A program made the translations under genes and the position numbers. The notes below the pieces were generated by a model. That model was not told where the DNA came from. It did no database searches and saw only the letters and a program-made list of their open reading frames with translations. A DNA stretch of 64,000 nt from an uncultured Thermoleophilia bacterium. GTDB lineage: Bacteria; Actinomycetota; Thermoleophilia; UBA2241. The stretch is from the NCBI GenBank assembly GCA_963702475.1, contig CAVPCT010000009.1, positions 96,001-160,000 on the forward strand, in the 5' to 3' direction. Shown here in pieces: positions 17,079 through 61,618 of the stretch. Position 1 is the stretch's first letter, and each line of letters opens with the position of its first letter.

Positions 17079-17888
17079 CTACCGCGTCAGGGGGACGTCG
17101 CCAAGGCTGACGTCCTTGTCGGTCTGGACTTCGCAGGTGGCCGGCGCGAACCCGTCCGCGGCGATGGTGACCGCGTACGTGCCTTCCTCGAGCCCGTGGA
17201 GCCAGAAGTCGCCGAACGCGTCGGTCTGCGTCGAGCACGACGCGCCGTCGGCCGCCGTGGCTGTGACGGTGGCGCCGACCACGACCTCCTTTTCGGCCGG
17301 GTCGTACACCGTGCCGGCGATGAACCTCTTCGGGACGTTGAGGTAGTACACCCGCGGCTTGGTGCCGGCCTCGGGCTTCTTGACCTGCGCCTGCGCGATG
17401 AGGTCGGCGAACTCGTCCTGGTCGCCGAACTTGAGCGCGCCGGTGGGGCAGGAGTCCACACAGCGCGGGGCCTCCCAGCCGCCGTCCAGCAGGTGGGCGC
17501 AGCCGGTGCACTTCTGCGCCAGGTTGAGGTCTTCGTTGAAGGAGATAGCGCGGTACGGGCAGGCATCGACGCAACTCCTGCAGCCGGTGCACCTGTCGGT
17601 GTCGATGACGACCAGGCCGTCGTCGCGCTTGTACATCGCGCCCTCGACCTTGCACGAGGCCATGCAGGGCGCCTCGTCGCAGTGGTTGCAGTGGTTGGCG
17701 ACGTAGTGCATGCGCACCTGCGGCACCTGGCCGCAGATGTGCTCGTCCACGCGCATCCAGAACTGGCCGTAGTCGGGTTGCGGTTTGGCGATGGGGGCCC
17801 AGTCGTTGCCCACGTGCTCGTCCTTGCAGGCGAACTGGCAGCCGAAGCAGCCGTTGCAGATGCCGACGTCCACGATGAACGCTTTCAT
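17079..17888 (-). CDS. Transhydroxylase small subunit-like FeS protein (16 cluster Cys) with C-terminal beta-sandwich
   Basis: CNGCFGCQFACKDEH, CNHC..PCMASC, CTGCRSCVDACP, CTGC..CVDSCP; TDAFGDFW..L..GTY tail. Confidence 0.88.
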   Translation of the reverse strand: MKAFIVDVGICNGCFGCQFACKDEHVGNDWAPIAKPQPDYGQFWMRVDEHICGQVPQVRMHYVANHCNHCDEAPCMASCKVEGAMYKRDDGLVVIDTDRCTGCRSCVDACPYRAISFNEDLNLAQKCTGCAHLLDGGWEAPRCVDSCPTGALKFGDQDEFADLIAQAQVKKPEAGTKPRVYYLNVPKRFIAGTVYDPAEKEVVVGATVTATAADGASCSTQTDAFGDFWLHGLEEGTYAVTIAADGFAPATCEVQTDKDVSLGDVPLTR

Positions 17889-20518
17889 CAGTCGTTACCT
17901 CCGTCGACCACCCAGCCGTTGAAGCGCAGACCGGCGCCGGGGTCGTACTCGCGGGCGAAGGCCTCGGGGTGCTCGGTGCGCCACTGCTCCCACTCCTCGG
18001 GCCTGATCTTCTGCACGTCCACGAGGTAGCCGCTGGTGGCCTGGCCGCAGGCGTTCTTGGACGTCAGGCCGTGCGGCGCGATGGTGTTGATTGCGCCGCC
18101 GCGGTCGACCTTGCCGGGGATGATGGGGTCGTGCCGGGCGCCGTGGTCGATGTACGTCACGCCCGGCATCATGCGCTCCCACACGCAGGCGCCGGCGAGC
18201 ACGATGCCGCGCTCGTTGAAGATCTTGACGATCTCGCCGTGCCTGATACCGCGCTCCTCGGCGTCCTTTGGGTTCAGCCACACGGGCTCGTAGTTGTAGT
18301 TGTCGGGACCCAGCACCTTGCCGGTCGGGGTCTCGCGCGCCCACGTACAGTCGTCGCCCTGGGCGTGCGTGCGCCAGCGCGGGTGGTTGCTCATGAGGAT
18401 GAGCGGGAACATGTCGGCGCGCTCGCTGGAGAGCCGCTCGTCGTGCGTGATGCCCTTCTCGATCCACTTGGGGATCCCGGGGCGCTCCTTGTCGTCGGGG
18501 AAGTGCGTGGCAAGGCGATCCGAGTAGAACTCCAGCAGGCCCGACGGGGTCTTGAGCGGGTTGTTCTCAGGGTCCTCGTAGAACCTGCGCAGGCCGGGCG
18601 GGTCCTGCTCCCAGTCCTTCGCAGTGGGGTAGACGATGTACTGCTTCTCCTTGAACTCCTCCCAGGTCATGTACTCGGGACCGTACATGCACTCGAAGAC
18701 CTCACGCTGCAGGTCCTCGTTGCTCTTGCCAAGGGTGAGCTTCTCCTTGTAGCCGAGCTTCTCGGCCACCGCGAGCACGATCTCATAGTCGCTCATGGAC
18801 TCGCCCACCGGCTCGATGGCCTTCTCCGTCAGCATGCAGGTCTGGTACGGGGGACCCTGGCGGACGTTGGTGAGGCAGTCGTCGACTTCCATGGTGGTGT
18901 TGGCCGGCAGGATGATGTCGGCGTAGAGGCAGTCGTTCTCGAGCCACGGGTGCTGCGCGACCATGAACTCGATGCTCGGGTCGCGGTGCGCCTCGATGGT
19001 CCAGTTGCCGTGGTTCCAGCAGGTGATGCGGCACGGCGTGTCGGTCCAGATCATGTGCAGGCGGCTGCCGCCCTCCTCTTCTGGCTCCGGGAACCGGTAG
19101 TCGATGAACTGGTCCTCGGTCTCGGCGTTCTGCGCGCCGGTGCCGGCGAAGTGGATGGTCTCCGGGTTGAGGATGGCCTCCTGGATGAGCGTCTTGGGGA
19201 CGTTCTGCGTGCCCCAGGCGTCCACGCTGCTGCGGACCGGCGTGCGCAGGTGCTCGCTGAGGGTGGGGTTGAAGTAGCGGAAGTTGTCGAGCGCCTCCGC
19301 GCGCGGCATGCCGAAGTAGGAGAACTGCCACTGGTGCACGCCGGGGCCGCCGAGGCCCTGCATGCCGAGCAGGATGCACTCCAGGCGGCCGGGTTCGTGG
19401 GAGTACGGGCCGCGGACCATGGAGCCGCCGAAGTAGTGCAGGATCGAGGTGCACTGCTTGGCGAACTCGCGGGCCAGCGCCTTGATGGTCCACTCGGGGA
19501 CGGCGGTCTTCTTCGCGGCCCACTCGGGCGTCTTGGGCACGCCGTCTTCTTCACCGAGCACGTAGGCCGCGACCTTCTCCATGCCGACGGCGTGGCTCGC
19601 GACGTACTCCTTGTCCCAGGTGTCTTCCTTGAGCCACACGTAGATGATGGCCAGCTGCAGGGCGGCGTCGGTGTTGGGCAGGATCGGGATCCACTTGTCG
19701 GCGTGCACCGCGGCGCCGAAGTTGAGCTCGGGGCAGATGTAGACCTGCTTGATGCCGACCTTGGTGAAGAAGTAGGAGATGTTGGTGGCGTTCTGGCCGG
19801 TGAAGCCCCAGGGCGTGGTCTCGTCGTCACAGCCCCACTTGAGGACGAGGTCGCAGTTCTCCACCACGTCCTTGAGGACGTTCAGCTGGGGCGCCATCAT
19901 GCCCTGGAAGCCGTGGCCCCAGACGTGCTTGGAACCCCAGTACCAGCCCTCCCAGCTGTCGGGCTGGCGGACCTGCAGGGTGAAGCCGCCCATCTCGTTC
20001 ATCAGGCGGCCGTTGTGGCCGTGCGGCGTGTGGATGGTCTTGCTCTCGCCGTGGCCGTCGGCCTGGAGGAGGATCGCGTTGAGCCCGTAGGTCTTCTGGA
20101 TGCGCCGGATCTCCGCGGCGATGATGTCGGTGGCCTCGTCCCACGAGATGCGCGCGTACTTGCTCACGCCGCGGTTCTGCGGGTTGCGCTCGCCGTTCGG
20201 GTCCCAGTCCACGCGCTTCAGCGGGTACTTGATGCGGTTGGGGGAGTAGGTGCGCTTCTTGTACGCCGTCATGTAGGGGGCCGGACGGGACCTGGATCCC
20301 GGCTCCAGCGTGTGGCCGTTGCGTTCGAGCTTCCACGGGCGGAAGGTCTCGGCGTCGTACTTCCAGTCGTACTGGAACGGCCGGATACGCACGATCTTGC
20401 CGTCCTTGACGTCGACCATGACCTCGCCGGTGCCGCCGAGGAGGCCGCCCTGCGACAAGGCCCGGAGGACGGTCTTGTCGGGGGTCACATCCACGTTCTT
20501 GCGCGAGTCCTCACTCAT
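17888..20518 (-). CDS. Transhydroxylase-family Mo-bisPGD large subunit, 'DGHG' subtype
   Basis: RIKYPLKRVDWDP, QADGHGESK, QPDSWEGWYWG, RGPYSHEP, ADIILP, SNHPRWRTH. Confidence 0.88.
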   Translation of the reverse strand: MSEDSRKNVDVTPDKTVLRALSQGGLLGGTGEVMVDVKDGKIVRIRPFQYDWKYDAETFRPWKLERNGHTLEPGSRSRPAPYMTAYKKRTYSPNRIKYPLKRVDWDPNGERNPQNRGVSKYARISWDEATDIIAAEIRRIQKTYGLNAILLQADGHGESKTIHTPHGHNGRLMNEMGGFTLQVRQPDSWEGWYWGSKHVWGHGFQGMMAPQLNVLKDVVENCDLVLKWGCDDETTPWGFTGQNATNISYFFTKVGIKQVYICPELNFGAAVHADKWIPILPNTDAALQLAIIYVWLKEDTWDKEYVASHAVGMEKVAAYVLGEEDGVPKTPEWAAKKTAVPEWTIKALAREFAKQCTSILHYFGGSMVRGPYSHEPGRLECILLGMQGLGGPGVHQWQFSYFGMPRAEALDNFRYFNPTLSEHLRTPVRSSVDAWGTQNVPKTLIQEAILNPETIHFAGTGAQNAETEDQFIDYRFPEPEEEGGSRLHMIWTDTPCRITCWNHGNWTIEAHRDPSIEFMVAQHPWLENDCLYADIILPANTTMEVDDCLTNVRQGPPYQTCMLTEKAIEPVGESMSDYEIVLAVAEKLGYKEKLTLGKSNEDLQREVFECMYGPEYMTWEEFKEKQYIVYPTAKDWEQDPPGLRRFYEDPENNPLKTPSGLLEFYSDRLATHFPDDKERPGIPKWIEKGITHDERLSSERADMFPLILMSNHPRWRTHAQGDDCTWARETPTGKVLGPDNYNYEPVWLNPKDAEERGIRHGEIVKIFNERGIVLAGACVWERMMPGVTYIDHGARHDPIIPGKVDRGGAINTIAPHGLTSKNACGQATSGYLVDVQKIRPEEWEQWRTEHPEAFAREYDPGAGLRFNGWVVDGGND

Positions 20519-20564
20519 CTCAATCGCTGTCCTTTCGCCAGTGTCGATGCCCCCCTGAACGGGC

Positions 20565-21423
20565 TCAGACGGTTGACTCGGATGCAGGCCGGGACTGGTT
20601 CCAGCCGAGGTAGGCGGAGAGGGCGGCGGCCGTCTCCCGCACCGCCGCGGTGCAGAGCTCGCGCTCCTCGGGGCCGAAGCGACCCGAGGGCACGGCGACG
20701 GAGAGGGCCGCGACGACGGTGCCGAGCTGGTCGCGGACGGGGCAGCCGACGGAGCACACACTTTCGAAGAGGCCTTCGATGTCGTAGGCGACGTCGTCCC
20801 GCACGATGTCGTCGAGCTGCCTGCGCCAGAGCCTCGGGATCTGTGACGGTGTACGGCGTGTGTTTGCGCCGCGGCCGCGCGAGGATCTCGGCGCGCCTGT
20901 CGGGCGGCGCGAAGGCGGTGAAGATCTTGCCGTGCACGGCGGCCAGGTCGCCGATGATGCGGCCGGGCGCGATCTGCCGCTGGAACGGGCGCGCGGAGTC
21001 GATGATGCCCGCGCACACGGGCACGCCGTCGACCGGGATCGCGAGGGTGACCGACTCGCCGGTGGTCTCGACGAGCTCCTCGAGGAACGGCCGCGCGAGA
21101 TCGACGAAGTCGGAGTTGTCCTCGGCGACGTAGCTCAGGGCGATGGCGGCAGGCCCGAGGTGGTAGGTGTTCGTGGTGGCGTCGCGCACGAGGAAGTCGG
21201 CGCCTTCGAGCGTGCGCACCATGCGATAGGCGGTCATGCGCAGCAGGCCGGTGCGCGCCGCGATGTCGTCGATGGACCACTCGCGGTGCTCGGCGTCGAA
21301 CAGCGAGAGGATGGAGAGGCCGCGCGCGAGCGCGCGCACGGTGAGCGGGTCGTGCTCCGGCGTACGTTGGCTCCGCCGCCCGGACGCTCCTGGTCCCGCA
21401 ACCTGCGTCGTCGCGCCCGTCAT
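20565..21423 (-). CDS. IclR family regulator, frameshift near 20810-20825
   Basis: VRALARGLSILSLF..RMTAYRMVRTL; C-terminus CSVGCPVRDQ..PSGRFGPE in 20565..20804; paralog of 653..1501. Confidence 0.88.
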
Positions 21424-21612
21424 GCCGTCCCCCGTCCCGACTCTTGCGCGTGAAAACGATACGGGAGTACCATTGTGGGCAAGGGCGCTCCGATATCGCC
21501 GTTGCTATCAGACGATATCAGCGTTTCCACGCATTGCAAGATGTCTGACGCGAATGTGGCCCGCCCGGCACGTGCGGGCGGCTGCGGTGAAGCCGGTTGG
21601 GGAGGTGCGTGC

Positions 21613-24147
21613 ATGACTGAGCAGGTGTTCACCAATCTGACGAACAACGGTCCCGTCACGGTGTACGTCAAGGACGGCGTGGTGACGCGGGTGCGCCCGC
21701 TGGTCGCCGACGAGTCCGAGTTCAGGCCCTGGGTGATCGAGGCGGACGGCAAGGAGTACTCGCCGCCCAGGAAGTTCAACGTGGCGCCGATGGTGCTCGC
21801 CGAGCGCCGGCGCCTCTACTCCGACGACCGCATCAAGTACCCGATGAAGCGCGTCGACTTCGATCCCGACGGCGAGCGCAACCCGCAGAACCGCGGCAGG
21901 TCGGCCTACGAGCGCATCTCCTGGGACGAGGCGCTCGACCTCGTCTCCGGCGAGATCGCGCGCGTGAAGAAGAAGTACGGCAGCTCCGCGATCAGCGGCA
22001 TGACGTCGTCTCACCACAACTGGGGCATCGTCGGCTACAAGATGGGCCCCTTCATGCGCTTCATGAACTGCCTCGAGGCCACCCCCGTGTTCGACAACCC
22101 GGACAGCTGGGAGGGGTGGCACTGGGGCGCCACGCACACCTACGGGTTCTACTGGCGCCTGGGCATGCCCGAGCCGTTCGACAACCTCCAGGACGTGATG
22201 AAGAACTCCGAGATGATCGTCTTCTGGTCGAACGACCCGGACACCACGCGCGGGACGTACTCGGGGCAGGAGTCGGCCATCTGGCGCACGTGGCTCCACG
22301 AGAAGGGCGTCCAGGCCGTCTTCATCGACCCCTTCCACAACTACACCAACGCCATCTTCTCCGACGCCAAGTGGATCGCGCCGCGCATGGGCACCGACAC
22401 CGCGCTGGCCATGGCGATCGCCTACGTGTGGATCACCGAGGACACCTACGACAAGGAGTACGTCGCCGAGCGCACCATCGGCTTCGACGAGTTCAGGCCC
22501 TACGTGCTCGGCGAGACCGACGGCGTGCCCAAGACGCCCGAGTGGGCGGCGGAGGAGTCGGGCGTCGACGCGCGCGTCATCCGGACGCTCGCGCGCGAGT
22601 GGGCCGAGCAAGCGCACCGCGCTCGCGGCCGGCGCGCGCGGCGGCGAGGGGAGCGCCTGCCGCACCGCCTACGGCACAGAGTGGGCCCGCATGATGGTGC
22701 TCCTCCAGGCCATGCAGGGTCTGGGCAAGCCCGGCATCACCATCGGGGGCGTCTCCATGGGCGCGCCGGCCGAGTTCGACACCTGGTTCCCCGCCTACGC
22801 CGAACCGCGCGGCCGCATGTCGCACTCGACGGTGGCCGCCAAGTACATCCCGCAGAACTCCACGAAGCAGCGGCTCTACAGGCTCACCGTGCCCGACGCC
22901 ATCCTCGACGGGCACGTCGAGTGGTGGGGCGCCGGCTTCTGCGGCCAGTCGCTCGAGCAGCAGTTCGAGCACTTCGTGTACCCCGCCGAGGGCTGCTCCG
23001 AGATCAAGCTCTGGTACCGCTACGGCGGCTCGTTCATGGGCACCATGAGCGACACCAACAAGTGGGTGCGCATGTACCAGAGCCCCAAGCTCGAGTTCGT
23101 CGTGAACCAGGACATCTGGTTCAACAGTGAGACGACGATGGCCGACGTGATCCTGCCGGCCTGCACCAACTTCGAGCGCGACGACCTCGGCGAGTTCGCC
23201 GCCTGCGGCGGCTACACGACGAACTCGCACTCCGGCAACAACTACCGTGTCATCGTCCGCGAGCAGAAGTGCATCGAGCCCCTCTGGGAGTCGCGCTCGG
23301 ACTACCAGATCCTCGCGGCGACTCGCCGAGCGCCTCGGCATGTACGACGAGTTCACCGACGGCGGCAAGACCGAGATCGACTGGGCCAAGGCGTTCTACG
23401 ACGCCTCCGACCTGGCCAGGACGCTGGACTGGGAGACCTTCAACGAGAAGGGCTACCACATCATCAGCGCCCCCGAGCGGTACGAGCCCAAGCCGTGTCT
23501 GCGCTGGTTCGCCGAGGGCCGCGCCTGCGACACGCCCGACACCGGCAACCCCAAGCGCAACATCCCGGAGAAGGCGCACGAGCTCGGCACCTACAGCGGC
23601 AAGATCGAGTTCTCCTCCGAGAGTCTCAAGGCGCACTTCCCCGACGACCAGGAGCGCCCGGTCTCGCCGAGGTACATCGAGAGCTGGGAGGGACACCACA
23701 CCACCGAGCTCTTCGAGAAGTACCCGCTGCAGCTCATGTCGCCGCACCCGCGCTTCTCGTTCCACTGCCACTACGACAAGCACACCGACTGGCTCGACGA
23801 CATCCCCGTCCACCGCATCAAGAAGGACGGGTACGCGTGGTGGCCGGCAAGGCTTCACCCCGCGGACGCCGACGCGAGGGGCATCCGCAACGGCGACCTC
23901 GTGCGGCTGTACAACGACCGCGGGTCGGTGCTCTGCGCCGCGGTGGTCACCGAGCGGGTCCGGCCCGGGCATCATCCACAGCTACGCCTCGTCGGCCAAG
24001 TACGACCCGCTCGAGCCGGGCAAGTCCGACTCCATCGACAAGGGCGGCTGCGTGAACGTGCTCACGCCGTCGCGCATGCTGAGCAAGCACGCGCCCGGCA
24101 TGACGCCCAACTCGTGCCTCATCGACGTCGAGAAGTGGGAGGGCTGA
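21613..24147 (+). CDS. Transhydroxylase-family Mo-bisPGD large subunit, 'SSHH/GGEG' subtype; frameshifts near 22610, 23320, 23965
   Basis: TSSHHNWG, NPDSWEGWHWG, LPACTNFER, SPHPRFSFH, GCVNVLTPSR spread over consecutive frames; ATG after GGAGG. Confidence 0.88.
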
Positions 24148-24151
24148 TCCG

Positions 24152-24986
24152 ATGACCCGTCTCGGTCTGCTCATCGATGTCACCAGGTGCAGCGGCTGCT
24201 ACAACTGCTTCCTCGCCTGCCGTGACGAGCACTACGGCAACGACTACCCGGGCTACTCCGCGCCGCAGCCCCTGTACGACCACTTCTGGCTGAAGATCAA
24301 CGAGGTCGAGGGCGGCCGCTACCCGCGCCCCCGGCTCAACTACATCGCCGTCCCGTGCCAGCAGTGCCAGGACGCGCCGTGCATGGCTGCCGCCAAGGAC
24401 GGCGCCGTGTACCGTCGCGCCGACGGCATCGTGATGATCGACCCCGTGAAGGCCAAGGGGCAGGACCAGATCGTCGCCTCCTGCCCGTACCGCGTCATCT
24501 CCTGGAACGAGGAGCTGGAGCTGCCGCAGAAGTGCGGCTTCTGCGCGCACCGTCTGGACGAGGGCGAGAAGGTGCCCCGCTGCGTCGAGGCCTGCCCGAC
24601 CGGCGCCATGGCCTTCGGCGACCTCGACGACCCGCAGTCGGAGATCTCGCTGCGGCTCAAGGAGGTCTCGCCGAGGTGTTCCACCCCGAGTACGAGACCG
24701 GAGCCGAACGTGCTGCTACGCCGGCCTGCCGGGGCGCATGGTGGCCGGCGAGGTCGTGCTCGAAGGCGCCGACGCGTGCGCCGCCGGCGTCAAGGTCACC
24801 CTCAAGGGTGACGGTGAGACGTGCGAGACGCGATCGGGCGTGTTCGGCGACTTCGCCTTCGAGAAGCTGCCGAGGGGCAGGACATACCGCGTCACCGTGG
24901 CGCACGAGGGCTACGCCACGCTGTCGTGCGAGGTGCGGACCCACACCGACGTCGACCTCGGCCAGGTGGTGCTGGCGAAGGCGTGA
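24152..24986 (+). CDS. BthL-like FeS small subunit (12 cluster Cys), frameshifted near 24670-24720
   Basis: CSGCYNCFLACRDEH, CQQC..PCMAAA, KAKGQDQIVASCP, CGFC..CVEACP; FGDFAFE..Y.V tail in 24738..24986. Confidence 0.85.
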
Positions 24987-25030
24987 GGTGCGTCGCGCGC
25001 GGGCGCGCGACGAGAGAGAGGAACTAGCCG

Positions 25031-25062
25031 GCGGCCGGCTGTCCGAAGGGGCGGCCGGCCGC
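25031..25062 (+). terminator. GC-rich hairpin after the small-subunit gene
   Basis: GCGGCCGGCTGTCC-gaag-GGGCGGCCGGCCGC, 14-bp stem with two G-U pairs. Confidence 0.5.
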
Positions 25063-25226
25063 TGCCTTCGCGGCCGATGACCCCCGATCTCACGACGGAG
25101 CTGCGTGCAACTCCGCGCCCAGGGCGCGCGCCGAAGCGCCGATGTGCTTGAGCGTGGGGTTGCCGTGCCGGCTCTCGATGCGTCAGCGTGTGCTCGTCGG
25201 GAGGACCGCGTCGTATGATGAATACC

Positions 25227-25950: not shown

Positions 25951-26139
25951 CAGGTCTGCGTGGCCTTGCTCGGGGCACGCTGGGCGAACTGACCCAGAAG
26001 CCGCGACGTGTGCTCTGCCGTGACCGCCGGCGCGATGCACCCCCGGTCGCAGGTGCGCCCAGCCCAGGAGCGCACCTGTGGTCGCTCTCATCAGGAGGTC
26101 ACCAGCGCGGCGGACGGCGGAGCTGGTCCCAAGCGTCGC

Positions 26140-26870: not shown

Positions 26871-26908
26871 CGTCTCGCCCTCCTCGGAACGCCCCGATGA
26901 TAGCAGAC

Positions 26909-26955
26909 TTGACAGGGAAAAAGCTAAATGACTACCATCTATGCAATTGGTGGTC
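26909..26955 (+). promoter_or_regulatory. Putative promoter TTGACA-N18-TACCAT overlapped by imperfect palindrome GACTACCA..TGGTGGTC
   Basis: Perfect -35 hexamer at 26909; TGGT/ACCA-type repeat resembling FadR-subfamily operators, next to the divergent FadR gene. Confidence 0.5.
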
Positions 26956-50224: not shown

Positions 50225-50240
50225 GCCAGGGTCACTCGCG

Positions 50241-51225: not shown

Positions 51226-51238
51226 GTCTCCGCCCTCC

Positions 51239-52015: not shown

Positions 52016-52181
52016 GCTTGGCTCCTGAGCTCGTGCGGTTCCCCTTCGCACCGACCCGGGGCAGCGCTCGCGCGCACGCCGGGCCCGTCGGTTGCGGCCA
52101 TGATAGGCGGAGGTCCCGCGAGCGCGGACAGGTTCGCCGCAACTTTTCATGCAGGCGCGGCGGTATTACCATCGCGTATAG

Positions 52182-53075
52182 ATGGAACTGGACCTCTTCC
52201 GCTCGTTCGTGGCCGTCGCCGAGTCCCGTAGCTTCAGCCGGGCCGCGCGTGCCATGCACTCCACGCAGCCCACGCTGAGCCGCCAGATCGCACGCCTGGA
52301 GGGCGAGCTGGGCGTGCGCCTGTTCGAGCGGTACGGCCGGCACGTGGAGTGCACCGAGAGCGGCCAGCTCCTGCTGCCGCTGGCGAAGGCCATCGTGTCT
52401 CGCACCGACGAGGTCGTGAGCCTCATGCGCGAGCAGGCCGGCGGCGGCCCCAGCACGGTGCGCTTCGGGGCCGCCGGCAACGTCATCGTGATGCTCACGC
52501 CCATCTTGGCGTCGTTCTTCAAGGCGTACCCCAAGGTCACGGTGGACCTTGTCGAGAAGGACGACTCCCAACTCGAGGAGGCCGTCATCACCGGCGAGCT
52601 GGACTGCGCCGTGATCACCCCGTGGGGGTCGACGCGGGCGATGGCCCAGCACCTGCTGACGGAGGAGATCCTGCTGGTCGTGCCGGAGGGGCACCGCTTC
52701 GCGGAGCTCCCGGCGGTGCCCATCGGCATGCTCGCGAGTGAGTCGTTGCTGCTCCCGCGCGCGACGATGAACGCCAGCAACGTGATCGCCGACGCCCTGC
52801 GCAGGGCCGGCGTCGAGCTGCGCTTCTCGTACCGCGCCAACTACCCCGATCTGACCAAGGCGCTCGTCCGTATGGGTCTCGGCGTCGCGCCGATGCCCAG
52901 GATGCTCGTCGCGCCGGAGACCATGGACGGCCTCGTCGCGATACCGTTCGAGCCGCGCGTGCAGCGCGACCTCACGATGCTCGCGCCGCGGGACCGGCCC
53001 CTCCCGGGCGCCGCCCGCGCCCTCATGGCGCACGTGAGGGGTGCCCTGGCCGGCCGCGGGGTCTCCGGCGCCTGA
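52182..53075 (+). CDS. LysR family regulator
   Basis: SFSRAA....TQPTLSRQI..LE.ELG..LFER; divergent from etfB. Confidence 0.93.
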   Translation: MELDLFRSFVAVAESRSFSRAARAMHSTQPTLSRQIARLEGELGVRLFERYGRHVECTESGQLLLPLAKAIVSRTDEVVSLMREQAGGGPSTVRFGAAGNVIVMLTPILASFFKAYPKVTVDLVEKDDSQLEEAVITGELDCAVITPWGSTRAMAQHLLTEEILLVVPEGHRFAELPAVPIGMLASESLLLPRATMNASNVIADALRRAGVELRFSYRANYPDLTKALVRMGLGVAPMPRMLVAPETMDGLVAIPFEPRVQRDLTMLAPRDRPLPGAARALMAHVRGALAGRGVSGA

Positions 53076-53466
53076 GAAAGCGCTTTCACGAGCGAGCCTT
53101 TGCTCGGCGCCTTTCCGAAGAAGCCCAGTCGCCGATGTTCACGCAGGGCACCGGCCGCATCTGTCGTTCCTCAGTGTTGGTTGCGTTTTACACCGAACGC
53201 CGAGGGCGTGAGGAGGATGACAGGGGCGCGGTCAGGTGGACGTTGAGTCGCATTGCGCCGCGAGCGTCCAGAGAGCGAGTCTCATGCAACGGGCACAGAG
53301 CCTCGGCGTCGCCTCCTGCGCAGCCGCGCGGCGTCAGTCCTATACGTTATGGTCATACTTCGCACCAACGATGAAGACTTCCGCCGAAGTGCTTCCGCCG
53401 CCTTCATGCGCGGCCTACTCTGTGACATTCGCCGACCCCACGTCATCGCACGCCAGGAGCTGCCGC

Positions 53467-54684
53467 ATGGATTTCCGGCTGACCGAAGAGCAAGAGATGA
53501 TCCGCGACATGGTGCGGGAGTTCGCCCGGGAAGAGGTGGCGCCTGCGGCCATGGTGTACGACGCGTACCGCGACCCCCAGGAGTGCGTGCCCTGGGACCT
53601 CCTCAAGAAGGCTTCGGCCCTCGGGCTGCGCACCGCCGCCATCCCGGAGAAGTGGGGCGGCGAAGGCGCCGACTACCTCACGCTGGCCATCATCCTGGAG
53701 GAGCTCGGCGTCGCCGACCAGGGCTTCGCCACCCTCATCCGCGGCTGCTACACCGAGTCGCCGCGCCTCATCGGCGAGCTGAACGACGAGCAGCGCGACG
53801 AGTGGCTGCCCAGGTTCATGGAGGACGACACGTTCCTGCTCGGGCTGGCGCGCTCGGAGCCGGACGCCGGCACCGACTCGCACTTCCTCTACGACGAGCC
53901 CGGCGCGTCCATCCAGACCTACGCCGTGTGCGAGGGCGACGAGTACGTGATCAACGGCACCAAGCACTACATCTCGTGCGGCGGCATCGCCAAGCTCTAC
54001 TTCCTGTACGCGCGCACGGACAGGAAGGGGCCGATCTCGACCAGCCTCAGCTGCTTCCTGCTGCCCGCCGACGCGCCGGGGTTCCGCATCGGCCGCTTCC
54101 ACAACAAGCTCGGGCGGCGCACGCTGGCAAACGCCGAGCTCGTGTTCGAGGACGCTCGCATCCCCGCGAGGTACCTGCTCGGCAACGAGGGCGAGGCGTG
54201 GGGCACCGAGGGCGAGTGGGGCGGCCCGCAGAAGGACTGGTCCAAGACGCCGCTGGGTGTGCCGCCGCCCTTCGGGCTTCTGGGCGCGGCGGCCAACCTC
54301 GGCACCGTGCGCTCGGTGTACGAGGAGGCCCTGGACTACGCCAGGAAGCGCATCCAGGGCGGCAAGCCGATCATCGAGCACCAGCACGTGGCCATGAAGC
54401 TGGCCGAGCTCCAGGTGCAGGTGGAGGCCGCGAGGGCCCTGCTCCACAAGGCCTGCTGGTCGTTCGAGACCAAGTACGAGTACGACCCCAAGATCGGCAT
54501 GCTCGTGAAGGCCTACATCGACACGATCGGCGTGAACGCCGTGAACATCGGCGCCGGCATCTTCGGCGGCTACGGCACCGCGGACGACGACGTGCCCTTC
54601 GGCAAGCACCTGCGCGACATCTACTCGTTCCTGCACGGCTTCGCGACCACGGAGATGGCGTTCCTGAACGGCGCTCCGGTCTGA
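53467..54684 (+). CDS. Acyl-CoA dehydrogenase family flavoprotein (atypical active site)
   Basis: MDF.LTEEQ, PEKWGG.G, SEPDAGTD, INGTKHYIS, KLG.R, YA..R.QGGKPI..HQ. Confidence 0.88.
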   Translation: MDFRLTEEQEMIRDMVREFAREEVAPAAMVYDAYRDPQECVPWDLLKKASALGLRTAAIPEKWGGEGADYLTLAIILEELGVADQGFATLIRGCYTESPRLIGELNDEQRDEWLPRFMEDDTFLLGLARSEPDAGTDSHFLYDEPGASIQTYAVCEGDEYVINGTKHYISCGGIAKLYFLYARTDRKGPISTSLSCFLLPADAPGFRIGRFHNKLGRRTLANAELVFEDARIPARYLLGNEGEAWGTEGEWGGPQKDWSKTPLGVPPPFGLLGAAANLGTVRSVYEEALDYARKRIQGGKPIIEHQHVAMKLAELQVQVEAARALLHKACWSFETKYEYDPKIGMLVKAYIDTIGVNAVNIGAGIFGGYGTADDDVPFGKHLRDIYSFLHGFATTEMAFLNGAPV

Positions 54685-54733
54685 TCGACCATCTGATCCA
54701 TCACTGCCCAACTCGACCAATGGGGGACCGAGG

Positions 54734-57238
54734 ATGGCGGAACAGAGCTTCGTGAACTGCACCAGCGGCGGCGCGATCCGCGTGGACGTGGCCGACGGCA
54801 GGATCGTCCGCGTGCGGCCGCTGGTGTTCGACGAGACGGACGCCGCGTCGTGGACGCTGGAGGTCGAGGGACACGAGTACACGCCGCCGCGTAAGTCCTG
54901 CGTGGCGGCGTTCTCGCTCACCGAGCGCGCGCGCGTCTACTCCGAGGAGCGGATCCAGTACCCGATGAAGCGGGTCGACTTCGACCCGGACGGGGAGCGT
55001 AATCCGCAGAACCGCGGCAAGTCCGGGTACGAGCGCATCAGCTGGGACGAGGCGCTCGATCTCGTGGCCGGCGAGATGAAGCGCATCCGCGAGAAGTATG
55101 GCCCGGAGGCCATCACCTCGCGGGCCTCGTCCCACCACAACTGGGGCAACCTGGGCTACCGCTCGGCGGCCTGGGCCCGCTTCTTCAGCCTCATCGGCTT
55201 CACCGACATCCTCGACAACCCGGACAGCTGGGAAGGCTGGCACTGGGGCGCCACGCACGCCTGGGGCTTCTTCTGGCGCCTCGGCAACCCGGAGCATTAC
55301 GACCTGCTCGAGGACGCGCTGCGCAACACCGAGCTGATCATCCAGTGGGGCAATGACCCCGACACCACGCACGGCATCTACGGCGGCAACGACTCGGCCG
55401 TGTGGCGGCTGTGGCTGCGGGAGCGGGGCATCAGGACCATCGTCATCGACCCCTTCTTCAACTACACGGGCGCGCACGTGGGCGACAAGTGGATCGCCTA
55501 CCGGCCGGGCACGACGGCGGCGCTCGCACTGGCCATCGCCCACGTGTGGATCGAGGAGGACACCTACGATCACGAGTACGTGGCCGCGCGGACGCTCGGG
55601 TTCGAGGACTATCGCGCCTACGTGCTCGGCGAGGAGGACGGCGTCGCCAAGACGCCGGCCTGGGCCGCCGAGCTCACCGGCGTACCGGCGCGCACGATCG
55701 TCGCGCTGGCGCGCGAGTGGGCGTCCAAGCGCACGTGCCTGGCGGGCGGAACCAAGGGTGGCGAAGGCGGGGCCTGCCGGCAGGCCTTCGCCACCGAGAG
55801 CGCCCGCATGCTCGTCCTGCTGCAGGCCATGCAGGGCCTCGGCAAGCCCGGCGTGATGATCTGGGGCACGGCCAACGGGCCGCCGTACAACGCTACGCTC
55901 GAGTTCCCCGGCTACGCCTCCGGCGGCTTCAACCTCATCGCCGAGAAGCCGGCCGTGAACCCCGTTCGACAGCGCCTGTACCGCCTCACGGTGCCGGAGG
56001 CCATCCTGAGCGCGCCCATCAGCTGGATGGGCGAGGGCTTCTGCGGCAACTCCATCGAGCAGCAGTTCACGAAGTTCACGTACCCGATGCCCGGTCACTC
56101 CGAGGTCAGGATGTTCTACCGCTACGGCGGAGCCTTCCTGGCCACGATGACGGACACGAACCGCTGGGTGCGCATGTACCAGAGCCCCAATCTCGAGTTC
56201 GTCGTGAACCAGGACTGCTGGTGGTGCACCGAGACGAAGTTCGCCGACGTGGTGCTGCCGGCGTGCACAAACCTGGAGCGCGAGGACATCGCCGAGTGGG
56301 CGAGCTCCGGCGGCTACTCGCTGCACGCCTCGGGCAGCGCCAGCCACCGCGTGATCGTCTACCAGCAGAAGTGCATCGAGCCGGTCGGCGAGTCGAAGCC
56401 CGACTACGACATCTTCGTCGAGCTGGCCCGGCGCCTGGGCGTGGAGCAGGAGTACACCGAGGGCAACACGTTCGAGGGCTGGATCCGCAAGATGTTCGAC
56501 AAGTCGGACCTGCCCCAGTACGTCTCGTACGAGGACTTCAAGGCGAAAGGCTACTTCGTCGTCCCGCAGATCGAGGACTACAAGCCGACGCCGGCCCTGC
56601 GCTGGTTCGCCGAGGGCCGGCCCTGCGACACGCCGGACACGAGCAACCCGAACCGGGGCACGGACAAGGAGCATCTGCTCGCGACCGTCAGCGGCAAGCT
56701 CGAGTTCGTCTCCCAGAGCCTGCTGGCGCACACGCCGGACGACGACGAGCGCTCGCCGCTGCCGCGCTGGCACGAGAGCTGGGAGGGGCACACGTCGGAG
56801 CTGGCGCAGGCGTACCCGCTGCAACTGATCTCGCCGCACCCGCGCTTCTCCTTCCACACGCAGCACGACACGCGCGTGCCGTGGCTCTCGGAGATCCCCG
56901 GGCACCGCAGGTGGATCGACGGCTACCCGTACCAGGTGGTGCGCGTGCATCCGGACGACGCCGCTGCGCGCGGTATCCGCGACGGCGACGTCGTGAAGCT
57001 CTACAACGGCCGGGCATCGGTGCTGCTCGCGGCGCAGATCACGGAGCGTGTGCGCCCGGGTGTGGTGCACTCGTATGAAGGCTCCTCGAGGTACGACCCG
57101 CTGGAACCGGGCAAGGCCGGGAGCACCGACCGCGGCGGCTGCGTGAACCTGCTCACGCCGTCGCGGATGCTCTCGAAGAACGTGCCCGGCATGGCGCCCA
57201 ACTCGTGCCTCGTCGAGCTCGCGAAGTGGGAGGGGTGA
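54734..57238 (+). CDS. Transhydroxylase-family Mo-bisPGD large subunit, 'SSHH/GGEG' subtype
   Basis: ASSHHNWGNLGYR, NPDSWEGWHWG, GGEGGACR, FPGYASGG, SPHPRFSFH; paralog of 21613..24147. Confidence 0.9.
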   Translation: MAEQSFVNCTSGGAIRVDVADGRIVRVRPLVFDETDAASWTLEVEGHEYTPPRKSCVAAFSLTERARVYSEERIQYPMKRVDFDPDGERNPQNRGKSGYERISWDEALDLVAGEMKRIREKYGPEAITSRASSHHNWGNLGYRSAAWARFFSLIGFTDILDNPDSWEGWHWGATHAWGFFWRLGNPEHYDLLEDALRNTELIIQWGNDPDTTHGIYGGNDSAVWRLWLRERGIRTIVIDPFFNYTGAHVGDKWIAYRPGTTAALALAIAHVWIEEDTYDHEYVAARTLGFEDYRAYVLGEEDGVAKTPAWAAELTGVPARTIVALAREWASKRTCLAGGTKGGEGGACRQAFATESARMLVLLQAMQGLGKPGVMIWGTANGPPYNATLEFPGYASGGFNLIAEKPAVNPVRQRLYRLTVPEAILSAPISWMGEGFCGNSIEQQFTKFTYPMPGHSEVRMFYRYGGAFLATMTDTNRWVRMYQSPNLEFVVNQDCWWCTETKFADVVLPACTNLEREDIAEWASSGGYSLHASGSASHRVIVYQQKCIEPVGESKPDYDIFVELARRLGVEQEYTEGNTFEGWIRKMFDKSDLPQYVSYEDFKAKGYFVVPQIEDYKPTPALRWFAEGRPCDTPDTSNPNRGTDKEHLLATVSGKLEFVSQSLLAHTPDDDERSPLPRWHESWEGHTSELAQAYPLQLISPHPRFSFHTQHDTRVPWLSEIPGHRRWIDGYPYQVVRVHPDDAAARGIRDGDVVKLYNGRASVLLAAQITERVRPGVVHSYEGSSRYDPLEPGKAGSTDRGGCVNLLTPSRMLSKNVPGMAPNSCLVELAKWEG

Positions 57239-57240
57239 CG

Positions 57241-58086
57241 ATGCCGCGCTACGGGATGGTCATGGACGTCGCCCGCTGCAACGGGTGCTACAACTGCTTC
57301 CTGGCCTGCAAGGACGAGCACTGCGGGCAGGCCCATCCGGGCTACGCCGCGGCGCAGCCGATGACGGGCCAGTCCTGGATCCGCGTGACGGAGCACGAGC
57401 GCGGCCAGTTCCCCAAGGTCAAGGTCGACTACACGGCGGTGCCGTGCCTGCACTGCGACGAGGCGGCGTGCGTGGCGGCCGCCTCCGAAGGCGCCGTGTA
57501 CCGCCGCGACGACGGCATCGTGCTCATCGATCCGGAGAAGGCGGCGGGGCAGAGGGACGTCGTGCAGAGCTGCCCGCACCGCCTGATCTTCTGGAACGAG
57601 GCGGAGCAGGTGGCGCAGAAGTGCACCCTGTGCGCCCACCTGCTGGACAAGGGCTACAAGGAGCCCCGGTGCGTGGAGGTGTGTCCCACCGGGGCCCTCG
57701 TCTTCGGCGACCTCGACGACTCCGACAGCGAGGTCGCGCGGGCGTTCGCCGAGGCCGAGGTCCTGCACCCGGAATACCGCCTCGGCGACAAGGTCCGCTT
57801 CGTCGGCCTGCCTGCCGAGTTCGTCGCCGGCTGCGTCGTGTTCGGCGACACCGACGCCTGCGGGGTCGGCGCCACGGTCACCCTGCAGGGTGACGACGGC
57901 GTGGCGGTCTCGGCTGTGGCCGACAGCTACGGCGACTTCGCGTTCGACGGCCTGCCGCGGACCGCGCGCTTCACGGTGTCTGTGTCGGCTCCGGGCTACG
58001 CCCCGTCAACCTGCGAGGTGACGACCCGAACGTCCATCAACCTCGGCGACATCGTGCTCGGCACGCTCACGGAAGGAGCGGTGTGA
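57241..58086 (+). CDS. BthL-like FeS small subunit (12 cluster Cys)
   Basis: CNGCYNCFLACKDEH, CLHC..ACVAAA, KAAGQRDVVQSCP, CTLC..CVEVCP; YGDFAF tail. Confidence 0.88.
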   Translation: MPRYGMVMDVARCNGCYNCFLACKDEHCGQAHPGYAAAQPMTGQSWIRVTEHERGQFPKVKVDYTAVPCLHCDEAACVAAASEGAVYRRDDGIVLIDPEKAAGQRDVVQSCPHRLIFWNEAEQVAQKCTLCAHLLDKGYKEPRCVEVCPTGALVFGDLDDSDSEVARAFAEAEVLHPEYRLGDKVRFVGLPAEFVAGCVVFGDTDACGVGATVTLQGDDGVAVSAVADSYGDFAFDGLPRTARFTVSVSAPGYAPSTCEVTTRTSINLGDIVLGTLTEGAV

Positions 58087-60785
58087 ACGGCATGAACGAT
58101 GAGGGCAAGGCCGGCGCGCCTGCGGACGCCGGCCCCGGCGCGGCTCCAGCTACGCCCGCCGCGCCCCTCGACACTCGCGGCGACAAGAGCGTCCTCAAGG
58201 CGCTCGGCCTGAGCGGCGGCATCTTCGGCGCCTGCCCGTCCAGCGTGGACGTCAAGGACGGGCGCGTCGTCCGCATCCGCCCGCTCCACTGGGACGACAA
58301 GTACGACCCGGCTACCTTCAACGCCTGGAAGATCGAGAAGAACGGCCACACCCTCGAGCCGCTCTACAAGTCCGTCCCGGCCCCGTGGAGCCTCGCGTAC
58401 AAGAAGCGCACCTACTCGCCGAACCGCATCAAGTACCCGCTCAAGCGCGTGGACTGGGACCCGAACGGCGAGCGCAACACCCACAACCGCGGCGTGAGCA
58501 AGTACGTGCGCATCAGCTGGGACGAGGCCACCGACCTCATCGCCGCCGAGATCCGCCGCCTCCATGAAGAGTACGGTCCGCTCAGCATCCTCGTCCAGGC
58601 CGACGGCCACGGCGAGTGCAAGATGATCCACGCCCCGCACGGCTGCGCCACGCTGCTGCTCGACAAGATGGGCGGCTTCACCCAGCAGGTCCGCAACCCG
58701 GACAGCTGGGAGGGCTGGTACTGGGGCTCCAAGCACGTGTGGGGCAAGGGCTTCATCGGGATGATGGCGCCCAACGACAACCTCGTGAAGGACATCTCCG
58801 AGAACAGCGATATGGTCGTCGTCTGGGGCGGCGATCCGGAGACCACCACGTGGGGCTTCCGCGGCCAGTTCGCCAGCCGCCTGTTGTTCTTCTGGAACGA
58901 CATCGGCCTCAGACAGGTCTACATCAACCCGGACCTGAACTACGCGGCCGCCATCCACGCCGACAAGTGGATCCCGATCCTGCCCAACACCGACGCGGCG
59001 CTGCAGCTCGCGCTCATGTACGTGTGGATCACCGAGGATACGTACGACAAGGAGTACGTGGAGACCCACACGGTGGGCTTCGACAAGATGAAGGCCTACG
59101 TGCTGGGCGAGGAAGACGGCGTCGCCAAGACGCCCAGGTGGGCCTCGGAGAAGTGCGGCGTGCCGCCGTGGACCATCAAGGCCCTGGCCCGCGACTGGGC
59201 CACGAAGGCCGTCACCATCGGCCACTACTTCGGCGGCGGGCTGGCGCGCGGGCCGTACTCTCATGAGCCCGCGCGGCTCGAGGTCGTCCTGCTGGGCATG
59301 CAGGGCCTGGGCAAGCCCGGCGTGCACCAGGCCCAGATCGCCTATACCGGTATGCCCAAGAACGTGATCACCGGAGGCGCCGACCACATGGGGCCCTTTG
59401 CCCACCTCACGGCGACGCCGGCCGGCGACCGTCTGCTCAAGCCCCACAAGGGCACCCCGACGGCGTGGGGCAAGCAGATGATCCCCAAGACGCTCATCGA
59501 GGCGGCCATCAAGCACGGCACCGTGGACTTCTGGGGCACCGGCGGTCACGAGGAGCCGACCTCCGACCAATACAGGAAGTACACGTACCCGATCGCCAAG
59601 GAGGACGGCGGCACCGAGATCCACATGATGTGGACCGACACGCCCTGCCGCACGACCTGCTGGAACTGCGGCAACGACGTCGTCGAGGCCATGCGCAATC
59701 CCAAGATCGAGTTCGTGCTGGCGCAGCACCCGTGGCTGGAGAACGACACCCTGTTCTCCGACATCATCCTGCCGGTCAACACCACGCTCGAGGTGGACGA
59801 CATCAGCCCGTGCATCCGCGAGGGCGACAGCTTCCAGAGCGTCATCCTGATGCGCAAGGCTGTGGAGCCCATCGGCGAGTCCCGCAGCGACTTCGAGGCC
59901 GTGTGCGCCATCGCCGAGAAGCTCGACATGCTCGAGGCGGTCACCGACGGCTTCTCGGTGGAGGACCTGCAGCGCATCACCTACGAGGGCATGAAGTTCG
60001 ACTCTGTGGTGCCGTGGGACGAGTTCGCGGAGAAGGACTACTGCGTGCTGCCGGTCGCGCCCGACTGGGAGAAGTGGCCGGCGGGCCTGTACGAGTTCTA
60101 CGCCGACCCTGAGGGTCACCCGCTGCCCACGCCGACCGGCAAGCTCGAGTTCTACTCGGCGAGCCTGGCGCAGGCGTTCCCGACCGACGAGGAGCGCCCG
60201 CCGTACCCCAAGTGGGTGGAGAAGGGCATCACCCACGACGAGCGCATCTCGAGCACGCGGGCGAAGGCGTATCCGCTGCTCGTGATGTCCAACCACGGGC
60301 GCTGGCGCACGCACGCGCAGGGCGACGACATCCCGTGGACGCGCGAGGCCCTCACCTGCAAGGTCAAGGGCTTCGACGGCTACCTGTACGAGCCGTGCTG
60401 GATGCACCCGTCCGACGCCGAGGCGCGAGGGATCAAGGGCGGCGACATCGTCCAGGTCTACAACGAGCGCGGCGGCGTGCTCTGCGGCGCCCTTGTGTGG
60501 GAGCGCATCATGCCGGGCGTGCTGTCCATCGACCACGGCGCCCGCGCCGACTACATCATCCCGTGCAAGCTGGACCGCGGCGGCGCCATCAACGTCATCG
60601 CCCCGGAGGGGCTGACGTCCAAGCACGCCGCCGGCCAGGCCACGAGCGGCTACCTCGCCGACGTCGAGCGCGTGTCCATGGCGCAGATGGAGCAGTGGAT
60701 GCGCGACTACCCCGAGGCGTTCCAGCGCGAGTACGACCCGGCTTCGGGTCTGCGCTTCAACGCCTGGGTCCAGGAAGGGAGGTGA
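58083..60785 (+). CDS. Transhydroxylase-family Mo-bisPGD large subunit, 'DGHG' subtype
   Basis: QADGHGECK, NPDSWEGWYWG, RGPYSHEP, SNHGRWRTH; paralog of 17888..20518. Confidence 0.9.
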   Translation: MNGMNDEGKAGAPADAGPGAAPATPAAPLDTRGDKSVLKALGLSGGIFGACPSSVDVKDGRVVRIRPLHWDDKYDPATFNAWKIEKNGHTLEPLYKSVPAPWSLAYKKRTYSPNRIKYPLKRVDWDPNGERNTHNRGVSKYVRISWDEATDLIAAEIRRLHEEYGPLSILVQADGHGECKMIHAPHGCATLLLDKMGGFTQQVRNPDSWEGWYWGSKHVWGKGFIGMMAPNDNLVKDISENSDMVVVWGGDPETTTWGFRGQFASRLLFFWNDIGLRQVYINPDLNYAAAIHADKWIPILPNTDAALQLALMYVWITEDTYDKEYVETHTVGFDKMKAYVLGEEDGVAKTPRWASEKCGVPPWTIKALARDWATKAVTIGHYFGGGLARGPYSHEPARLEVVLLGMQGLGKPGVHQAQIAYTGMPKNVITGGADHMGPFAHLTATPAGDRLLKPHKGTPTAWGKQMIPKTLIEAAIKHGTVDFWGTGGHEEPTSDQYRKYTYPIAKEDGGTEIHMMWTDTPCRTTCWNCGNDVVEAMRNPKIEFVLAQHPWLENDTLFSDIILPVNTTLEVDDISPCIREGDSFQSVILMRKAVEPIGESRSDFEAVCAIAEKLDMLEAVTDGFSVEDLQRITYEGMKFDSVVPWDEFAEKDYCVLPVAPDWEKWPAGLYEFYADPEGHPLPTPTGKLEFYSASLAQAFPTDEERPPYPKWVEKGITHDERISSTRAKAYPLLVMSNHGRWRTHAQGDDIPWTREALTCKVKGFDGYLYEPCWMHPSDAEARGIKGGDIVQVYNERGGVLCGALVWERIMPGVLSIDHGARADYIIPCKLDRGGAINVIAPEGLTSKHAAGQATSGYLADVERVSMAQMEQWMRDYPEAFQREYDPASGLRFNAWVQEGR

Positions 60786-60787
60786 CC

Positions 60788-61618
60788 GTGGGCAAGGTCT
60801 TCGTCATCGACGTCGGCAGGTGCAACGGCTGTCACTCGTGCCAGGTCGTCTGCAAGGACGAGCACGTGGCCAACGACTGGACGCCGTACGCCAAGCCGCA
60901 GCCCGAGGTCGGTCAGTTCTGGATCGAGCTCACCGAGCGGGTGCGGGGCACGGTGCCCAAGGTCAAGGTGGCCTACCGCCCGCACCTCTGCATGCACTGC
61001 GACAACGCCCCGTGCATGACCTCATGCACGGTGCCCGGCGCCCTGTACAAGCGCGCCGACGGGCTGGTCATCATCGACCCGGTCAAGTGCACCGGGTGCA
61101 AGAACTGCGTGGACGCGTGCCCGTACGGCACCATCTTCTTCAACGACAACCTCAACATCGCCCAGAAGTGCACCGGCTGCGCCCATCTGCTGGACGACGG
61201 CTGGGCCGAGCCGCGCTGCGCCGACGCCTGCCCGACGCTGGCCATCAAGCTGCTGGAGGAGGACGAGGCGAAGGCACAGGGGCTGCTCGACGGCGCCGAG
61301 GTCTGGAAGCCGGAGCGCGCGGAGGAGCTCAGGCCGCGCGTGTACTACCGCAACCTGCCGAAGAAGTTCATCGCCGGCACGCTCTACGACCCGGCGGAGG
61401 AGGAGGTCGTGATCGGCGCGACGGCGACGCTGACGGCGGCGGACGGTGGGGGAGAGGCGCTGACCGCCGAGACCGACGCCTACGGCGATTTCTGGTTCGA
61501 GGGCCTCGAGGACGGCGTGTACGACCTGGAGCTGAAGCACGACGGCCAGGCCGTGAGCTTCGCCGGCCTGGACGCCGCCGCGGCCGACATCAACCTGGGG
61601 GACATCCCGCTGGTGTGA
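60788..61618 (+). CDS. Transhydroxylase small subunit-like FeS protein (16 cluster Cys)
   Basis: CNGCHSCQVVC, CMHC..PCMTSC, CTGCKNCVDACP, CTGC..CADACP; TDAYGDFWF tail; paralog of 17079..17888. Confidence 0.88.
   Translation: MGKVFVIDVGRCNGCHSCQVVCKDEHVANDWTPYAKPQPEVGQFWIELTERVRGTVPKVKVAYRPHLCMHCDNAPCMTSCTVPGALYKRADGLVIIDPVKCTGCKNCVDACPYGTIFFNDNLNIAQKCTGCAHLLDDGWAEPRCADACPTLAIKLLEEDEAKAQGLLDGAEVWKPERAEELRPRVYYRNLPKKFIAGTLYDPAEEEVVIGATATLTAADGGGEALTAETDAYGDFWFEGLEDGVYDLELKHDGQAVSFAGLDAAAADINLGDIPLV

Follow-up and report, generated by a model that had tools for sequence, protein, structure and literature searches.

The closest described relatives of the system considered here belong to the family of the pyrogallol-phloroglucinol transhydroxylase (TH) of Pelobacter acidigallici, AthL/BthL (PDB entries 4v4c, 4v4d, and 4v4e), in which a three-domain large (α) subunit is joined to a small (β) subunit with a C-terminal barrel. 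TH requires a cosubstrate, and we take Ser175 of its large subunit to be the molybdenum ligand and Asp174, His144, and Tyr404 to be active-site residues, with Tyr404 proposed to act with the cosubstrate. Two other TH-family molybdenum enzymes, resorcinol hydroxylase (RhLS/RehLS) of Aromatoleum anaerobium and 3,5-dihydroxybenzoate hydroxylase (DbhLS) of Thauera aromatica AR-1, are described as hydroxylating phenols with net release of electrons (PMC10100899, PMC10084136). RhL and PgtL are placed together in a single family by a survey of the superfamily (PMC10100899). Genome surveys routinely give every family member the label “pyrogallol hydroxytransferase,” read it as evidence of pyrogallol fermentation, and note multiple copies in Chloroflexi, in the accessible text without separating subtypes (PMC3971608, PMC4959651). 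The present study concerns a 64,000-nucleotide stretch of an uncultured sediment Thermoleophilia bacterium (the window, C9:96001-160000 of a 4.3-Mb, nine-contig metagenome-assembled genome that is 93.8% complete and 6.5% contaminated; window G+C 69%), in which two distinct TH-like types, called DGHG and SSHH/GGEG after motifs in their large subunits, are paired twice. Among the papers listed in searches of the openly accessible literature, none was found to distinguish two TH subtypes or to mention their pairing.

Our preferred reading, to which we give a probability of about 0.5, is that the two types are separate αβ bis(molybdopterin guanine dinucleotide) enzymes that would act in one anaerobic polyphenol route; the likely purpose of their partnership is to break down plant polyphenols without oxygen. 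The window holds five α genes (A1 to A5) and four β genes (B2 to B5). In Pfam, all five α-proteins have the composition expected of the TH family, an AhtL-like first domain and both molybdopterin domains, and A2, A3, A4, and A5 each match AhtL-like_1st (PF21423), Molybdopterin (PF00384), and Molydop_binding (PF01568). Each of B2, B3, B4, and B5 matches Fer4_11, a four-cluster-ferredoxin core, and B2, B4, and B5 also match CarboxypepD_reg, the C-terminal barrel domain; the in-frame part of B3 has no match to it, and the equivalent stretch is present in another frame (tblastn). By this domain content, the same as that of AthL/BthL, all of these genes are relatives of Pelobacter TH. NCBIfam gave generic DMSO-reductase-family matches alone, below cut-off, and comparison with the ESM Atlas gave generic names alone.

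A first-pass annotation of the window, made without database searches, had reported the same two-enzyme pairing at two places, and both stand. At 17079-24986 (cluster 1), the DGHG-type A2/B2 and the SSHH/GGEG-type A3/B3 are divergent about an IclR gene, an arrangement whose coordinates and types hold in Pfam, tblastn, and motif comparisons. At 54734-61618 (cluster 2), A4-B4 (SSHH/GGEG) is followed in tandem by A5-B5 (DGHG), and the junctions, when checked, proved to consist of abutting or overlapping stops and starts: the A4 stop (57238) is followed by the B4 ATG (57241), the B4 stop overlaps the A5 GTG (58083), and the A5 stop overlaps the B5 GTG (60782). In cluster 1 the stop codon of IclR and the start codon of A2 share bases (ATGA), and IclR-A2-B2 is therefore a single co-directional, translationally coupled unit; A3 starts 189 nt from the IclR gene, on the opposite strand. 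The overlapping stops and starts, together with an IclR and a LysR gene at the heads of the clusters, point to co-regulation, and the placing of both pairs under one regulator would be explained by a shared role in a single anaerobic polyphenol route. The two clusters are not recent copies of each other, as the annotation had also recognized: identities between paralogs are 61% for A5-A2, 56-70% per segment for A4-A3, and 57% for B5-B2 (tblastn), and A4 and A5 share 37%.

The two types are well-supported separate clades in a tree of 194 distinct α sequences taken from 142 loci and from this genome itself. Of these, 147 and one EGHG variant form the DGHG clade (support 0.981) and 45 form the SSHH-like clade (0.988), inside which GGEG marks out a subclade of 26 (+2) (0.984). 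In A2 and A5 the naming motif reads DGHGE(C/S)K, with DGHGE(C/S/N)K across the clade and DQHGENK in one subclade. In the alignment of the 45 SSHH-like and 148 DGHG sequences, both types retain, as does AthL, the SSHH/DGHG His and the NPDSWEGW motif with its Asp-Ser pair, the first two residues of this motif varying slightly. The FPGY loop carrying the Tyr and the sequence GGxGGACR, in contrast, are confined to the SSHH-like α-proteins, where a few A3-like sequences have FP(A/S/N)Y variants. None of the 148 aligned DGHG sequences has FPGY, the region not being alignable, and in place of GGxGGACR they have a three-residue deletion with GGxxxRGP. Bit scores against 4v4c_A are 882 for A4 (full alignment), 443 for A2, and 419 for A5. 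Even the closer type departs from the Pelobacter enzyme, having GGEGG in A4 where the Pelobacter protein has GGWGG, and this exchange of Glu for Trp predicts a different pocket.

The small subunits divide along the same line. Among 105 distinct β-proteins encoded directly after DGHG α genes, the fourth Fe-S site is kept in 105/105, as the full CxxCxxCxxxC of Cys group III in 88 and as CxxXxxCxxxCP, with three Cys, in 17, mostly of the DQHG subclade. By contrast, group III is found in 0/65 of the distinct β-proteins encoded after SSHH-like α genes, a pattern that B4 and B3 follow and that Pelobacter BthL shares. At its fourth position, group II likewise has Cys in 100/105 DGHG and 0/65 SSHH β-proteins. 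All four Cys groups are present in B2 and B5, which align across them with PsrB (2vpw_B), the PsrB/DmsB type of subunit; B5 does so Cys for Cys, whereas BthL (4v4c_B) lacks the Cys in question. The combination of DGHG α-proteins without the FPGY loop and four-cluster β-proteins, as opposed to the three-cluster β-proteins of the SSHH type, is new here. On these patterns the DGHG enzymes possess the complete four-cluster wire of ordinary electron-transferring molybdoenzymes, and the SSHH enzymes the truncated wire found in the redox-neutral transhydroxylase; by the geometry of formate dehydrogenase-N, the lost cluster is presumably the distal, partner-facing one. On two metagenome contigs (L173:3823-12291 and L174:2324-11300), two SSHH-type α genes and one DGHG α gene are followed by a single β gene of the four-cluster type, an arrangement in which several α-proteins might share one β.

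Gene order, clades, motif and Cys patterns, and partial conservation are observed, whereas the chemistry, the order of steps, and the substrates of both types are what we infer. A three-cluster β, together with the Tyr loop, His, and Ser/Asp motif retained in the α-proteins, allows the SSHH/GGEG enzymes (A4B4 and A3B3) to be read as redox-neutral; they would most likely shuffle hydroxyl groups between phenols with no net redox change. The four-cluster β lends support to the idea of the DGHG enzymes (A5B5 and A2B2) as the redox-active members: with the molybdenum site kept, the Tyr loop missing, and a four-cluster wire, they would most likely catalyze a net redox reaction, acting either as a water-dependent ring hydroxylase that passes electrons to an outside acceptor or as a reductive dehydroxylase fed with electrons from outside. 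The first of these options is the chemistry described for RhLS and DbhLS, a comparison made by description and not by sequence. The clade could, but need not, correspond to the resorcinol hydroxylases already described (RhL/DbhL); no RhL/DbhL-type names occur among 240 listed homologs of two DGHG queries, nor is a characterized relative listed there, and the tripartite ATP-independent periplasmic (TRAP) transporters beside some DGHG pairs presumably resemble the Thauera aromatica AR-1 cluster. In contrast to DmsABC and PsrABC, which are complex iron-sulfur molybdoenzymes, the DGHG α-proteins lack the N-terminal Fe4S4 domain (PF04879, FS0, not found by Pfam in A2 or A5), and inspection of the A5 N terminus revealed no twin-arginine (Tat) motif. 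There is no dedicated membrane anchor near A5B5, and the NrfD gene 0.8 kb downstream of B2 is grouped with PsrA/PsrB-like genes of its own. As for steps in series, Brune, Schnell and Schink reportedly described sequential transhydroxylations in Pelobacter massiliensis in 1992, a precedent for several TH-type activities acting one after another; those activities are said never to have been assigned to genes, and no hydroxylase-type partner is said to have been described.

The pairing is recurrent in other genomes but optional. An SSHH-like gene lies within 10 kb of all 3/3 DGHG genes of this genome. When the 12 SSHH-like genes were placed at random (20000 trials), this result had a frequency of 0.0002, which puts the linkage far beyond what chance would give. 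The order LysR-ACAD-A4-B4-A5-B5 (ACAD, acyl-CoA dehydrogenase-family protein) is syntenic in four other genomes at 77-82% identity. A hand-picked sample of 60 DGHG loci from the class of the window (20 per identity band, some of the genomes recurring in other comparisons) has an SSHH-like neighbor in 37 cases, with a preferred partner subclade for each DGHG subclade. An A4 ortholog accompanies 9/20 A5-ortholog loci and an A1-like gene 13/20 loci of the DQHG subclade, and B2-A2-IclR faces a GGEG-type α/β pair at 15/20 A2-ortholog loci, one of the others being cut by a contig end and four being without the partner. The arrangements of clusters 1 and 2 are thus conserved gene orders, not one-off accidents. 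Beyond the phylum, GGEG-type partners stand beside DGHG genes in Desulfospira and Desulfocapsaceae (Desulfobacterota) and in a metagenome-assembled genome of Steroidobacteraceae (loci L004, L060, L066, L068, and L078) in different combinations of subclades. Desulfospira, for example, joins an A5-like DGHG gene to an A3-like GGEG gene, and in Actinomycetota the A3-like partner goes with an A2-like gene. At the level of whole genomes, a search of 401 from the class, with scoring limited to the two best candidates of each, found both types in 66, only DGHG in 4, only SSHH-like in 5, and neither in 326; where the sampled DGHG locus had no such neighbor, SSHH-like genes were present elsewhere in 20/20 genomes.

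Several observations weigh against a partnership of the two types. The first-pass annotation had named, as the result that would speak against its idea of the two types working as a unit, DGHG genes usually lying without an SSHH-type neighbor in other genomes, and outside this lineage this is largely what is seen. Across phyla, DGHG loci are mostly without one: 14/78 have it with flanks as available, 10/32 with both flanks of at least 5 kb, and 6/21 with the full 10 kb, while 11/78 have a DGHG-DGHG tandem instead. Seen from the other partner, a DGHG gene is present at 10/80 A4-like metagenome loci (5/13 with flanks of at least 5 kb). L150 and L154, with 79-82% A4 orthologs and full flanks, read LysR-ACAD-A4-B4 with no DGHG gene within 10 kb. 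A full-length A4 ortholog occurs in 24 class genomes, and a DGHG gene of at least 75% identity lies within 10 kb in 9 of them, at 10-14 kb in 4, farther along the same contig in 2, and on another contig in 3; in the remaining 6/24, the scored DGHG candidates (two per genome) all stayed below 75%. Kin genomes, moreover, are not independent of one another, and the two-candidate scoring applies to all of the class-genome searches. No electron partner was identified for the DGHG enzyme. Finally, TH-like paralogs cluster generally in this genome, so some of the adjacency may merely reflect catabolic islands. The idea of a unit consequently survives in part: the conserved gene orders and the genome-level co-occurrence speak for it, but DGHG loci without a partner and A4 orthologs without A5 mean that the unit is not an obligate one.

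The islands themselves suggest the strongest competing explanation, which we consider a good deal less probable than the partnership: the two types would be independent isoenzymes for different phenolic substrates, found together only because TH-like paralogs accumulate in the catabolic islands of polyphenol specialists. The number of α genes in this genome and its relatives, the several same-type tandems (described below), and the DGHG-DGHG tandems across phyla all fit such an account, as do L150 and L154, where A4-B4 stands without A5, and at least four other fixed contexts of DGHG genes without SSHH. Two of these contexts read SDR-MFS-α-β-OYE/FadH-like (short-chain dehydrogenase/reductase, major facilitator superfamily, old yellow enzyme) and CoA-enzyme-activase-MMPL-α-β-TetR, and two more are a TRAP transporter with α-β and IclR-α-α-β. 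It accounts less readily for translational coupling inside one operon, for the recurrence of the same pairing of types across orientations and phyla with shuffled partner subclades, and for the preferred partner of each DGHG subclade in the class sample. The first of the contexts, in the form (TetR)-SDR-MFS-DGHG α-β-OYE/FadH-like and with no SSHH gene, was observed at L086, L098, L100, L102, and L095 (all from the same class but another family). Its OYE/FadH-like flavoprotein has FMN and FAD/NAD domains and might exchange electrons with the four-cluster β as its partner. Overall, the neighbors (IclR, SDR, MFS, TRAP, thiolase, OYE/FadH-like reductase, and CoA-enzyme activase) fit aromatic and polyphenol catabolism.

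An unlikely alternative is that the DGHG enzyme primes its neighbor, hydroxylating a trihydroxybenzene to 1,2,3,5-tetrahydroxybenzene and so making or regenerating the catalytic cosubstrate of the TH-type enzyme, a service that would be helpful without always requiring adjacency. Linkage that is optional yet enriched, co-occurrence at the genome level, a redox-competent β, and a DGHG site with Ser, Asp, and His but no Tyr loop are all consistent with priming, while the TRAP transporter and CoA-enzyme-activase contexts of DGHG pairs suggest that these enzymes have substrates of their own. Between action in series on one substrate, cosubstrate priming, and a merely shared island, sequence cannot decide. 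Least likely, and improbable even beside priming, is an obligate unit, whether a four-subunit complex or the redox-coupled hydroxylase/dehydroxylase of the first-pass annotation, with the transhydroxylase reaction split between two enzymes (pure conjecture) and electrons passed from β to β: the complete wire in one β type and the truncated one in the other, the tight operon coupling, and the strong co-occurrence in the class would suit it, but each type is frequently found alone, with about 70% of adequately flanked DGHG loci lacking the partner and A4 orthologs occurring with no close ortholog of A5, either in the vicinity or in the set of scored matches, the three-cluster β presumably lacks the site by which its four-cluster relatives would reach a partner, and the SSHH type keeps all features of the self-sufficient Pelobacter enzyme.

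The paired genes belong to a larger inventory (Table 1). The genome has 15 TH-like α genes, 3 of the DGHG type and 12 SSHH-like, and genomes of relatives have up to 45 TH-like matches each. Same-type α tandems occur at C2:368190/370744 and C9:556/3104. Several of the TH-like α genes have no adjoining small subunit, and two lie in α-α-β tandems. Among the former is A1, which is 50% identical to A4 (tblastn), scores 1173 bits against 4v4c_A, and sits just beyond 17079-61618, the range covered by the first-pass annotation. On metagenome contigs, a subclade of SSHHNWG α-proteins 64-68% identical to A4 (L163-L172 and L181-L183) has no small-subunit gene in its available flanks either, as at L181, where up to 10 kb downstream could be surveyed. 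The highest score, 1709 bits, belongs to the copy at C4:267322-269946 (L143:9322-11946, minus strand), whose motifs (SSHHMWGNVG, GGWGGACRAS, and FPGYAEGG) are identical to those of Pelobacter. Its degree of similarity to the deltaproteobacterial enzyme is striking, its codon usage is native (G+C at third codon positions, GC3, 0.95), and it is likely the organism's true pyrogallol transhydroxylase. It follows that the SSHH genes of the window are not the canonical ortholog and that both partners in the pairing are noncanonical subfamilies.

Table 1. Features of the window and other TH-like α genes of the genome (window positions unless a contig is named; HSP, high-scoring segment pair)
Feature	Position	Strand	Basis
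A1, SSHH-like large subunit (GSHHLWG / GGWGGACR)	~9998-12637, start approximate	-	Pfam, tblastn, motifs
PsrA/PhsA-like molybdopterin oxidoreductase with N-terminal Fe4S4 domain	13047-15266	-	Pfam; single 82%-identity HSP to intact ortholog L120
NrfD-family membrane subunit	15282-16235	-	Pfam PF03916; syntenic in genus relatives L115-L122
PsrB-like multi-cluster ferredoxin	16258-17050, start approximate	-	Pfam Fer4 families; tblastn match 16462-17046
B2, small subunit of DGHG-type enzyme, four complete Cys groups	17079-17888	-	Pfam Fer4_11 + CarboxypepD_reg, Cys-group census
A2, DGHG-type large subunit, ATG start at 20518	17888-20518	-	Pfam, motifs
IclR-family regulator	20515-21423	-	Pfam HTH_IclR + IclR_C; NCBIfam PcaR/PcaU-like below cut-off
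A3, SSHH/GGEG-type large subunit, three frames	21613-24144	+	tblastn segments
B3, three-cluster-type small subunit	24152-~24986	+	tblastn, Cys pattern
ETF (electron transfer flavoprotein) α	50241-51225	-	divergent from LysR; Pfam; synteny with L079-L082
ETF β	51239-52150	-	divergent from LysR; Pfam; synteny with L079-L082
LysR-family regulator, head of cluster 2	52182-53075	+	Pfam; syntenic in relatives
ACAD protein, directly upstream of A4	53236-54684	+	Pfam; conserved before A4 orthologs
A4, SSHH/GGEG-type large subunit	54734-57238	+	Pfam; motifs SSHHNWG, GGEGGACR
B4, small subunit of the three-cluster type, like Pelobacter BthL without the Cys motif of group III	57241-58086	+	
A5, DGHG-type large subunit	58083-60785	+	Pfam; motifs
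B5, four-cluster small subunit	60782-61618	+	Pfam; aligned to 4v4c_B and 2vpw_B
Other α-gene places in the genome	C2:356646-373279; C3:557680-575539; C4:267313-269874		
α-gene places on contig C9	556-5638; 106022-120144; 150734-156671; 177857-180394		

Two flanking gene groups were also observed. The PsrB-like, NrfD, and PsrA-like genes directly downstream of B2 (13047-17050, minus strand) are syntenic in L115-L122 and L104, and might offer the A2B2 enzyme a link to quinones. In cluster 2 the ACAD gene, which has an N-terminal extension of ~80 residues, directly precedes A4 orthologs as well in loci that lack A5, and it is flanked by the divergent ETF genes and a CCG-domain Fe-S protein (48167-52150).

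Part of cluster 1 is interrupted by frameshifts. Compared with intact orthologs from four members of the same genus (L116, L117, L119, and L122, ~87% identical in DNA to the window), A3 has single-base insertions near 22606, 23320, and 23967, and B3 has single-base indels at 24671, 24698, and 24715, one deletion and two insertions. Contigs from four public sediment and related runs, whose coverage reached the sites in A3 and not those in B3 (24678-24905), lack the extra A3 base at 22604 (2 runs), 23320 (3), and 23970 (3), which makes assembly indels or strain lesions the probable cause. Similar interruptions occur in the PsrA-like gene, which compared with L120 has an out-of-frame stretch of ~35 residues with a TGA near 14400-14510, a local double frameshift, and in ETF α, which is split over two frames; these too are probably assembly errors or strain-specific lesions. 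Selenocysteine was considered for the in-frame TGA of the PsrA-like gene and rejected because the TGA lies inside the local double frameshift. The A3/B3 frameshifts do not show that the pairing in cluster 1 has lost its function in nature.

The family that has been annotated under a single name splits into at least two mechanistic types, which can be told apart by the Tyr loop and by three- versus four-cluster β-proteins, and the less TH-like of them, DGHG, is the most widespread one in the uncultured anaerobes sampled. We tentatively suggest, as a possibility well short of even odds, that the DGHG clade comprises uncharacterized, widespread, oxygen-independent phenol hydroxylases or dehydroxylases that form a two-enzyme module with a GGEG-type transhydroxylase, in which they would either supply the tetrahydroxybenzene cosubstrate or feed di- and trihydroxybenzenes into the phloroglucinol pathway. 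The dichotomy in Tyr loop and cluster number is a concrete, testable handle. If the DGHG enzymes are redox hydroxylases or dehydroxylases, what is predicted about the turnover of polyphenols in soils and sediments without oxygen would have to be revised, and the origin of the transhydroxylase cosubstrate would become testable with a defined gene pair. If true, the module would explain polyphenol breakdown in anoxic sediments by uncultured Thermoleophilia-like actinobacteria, Dehalococcoidia, and Desulfobacterota.

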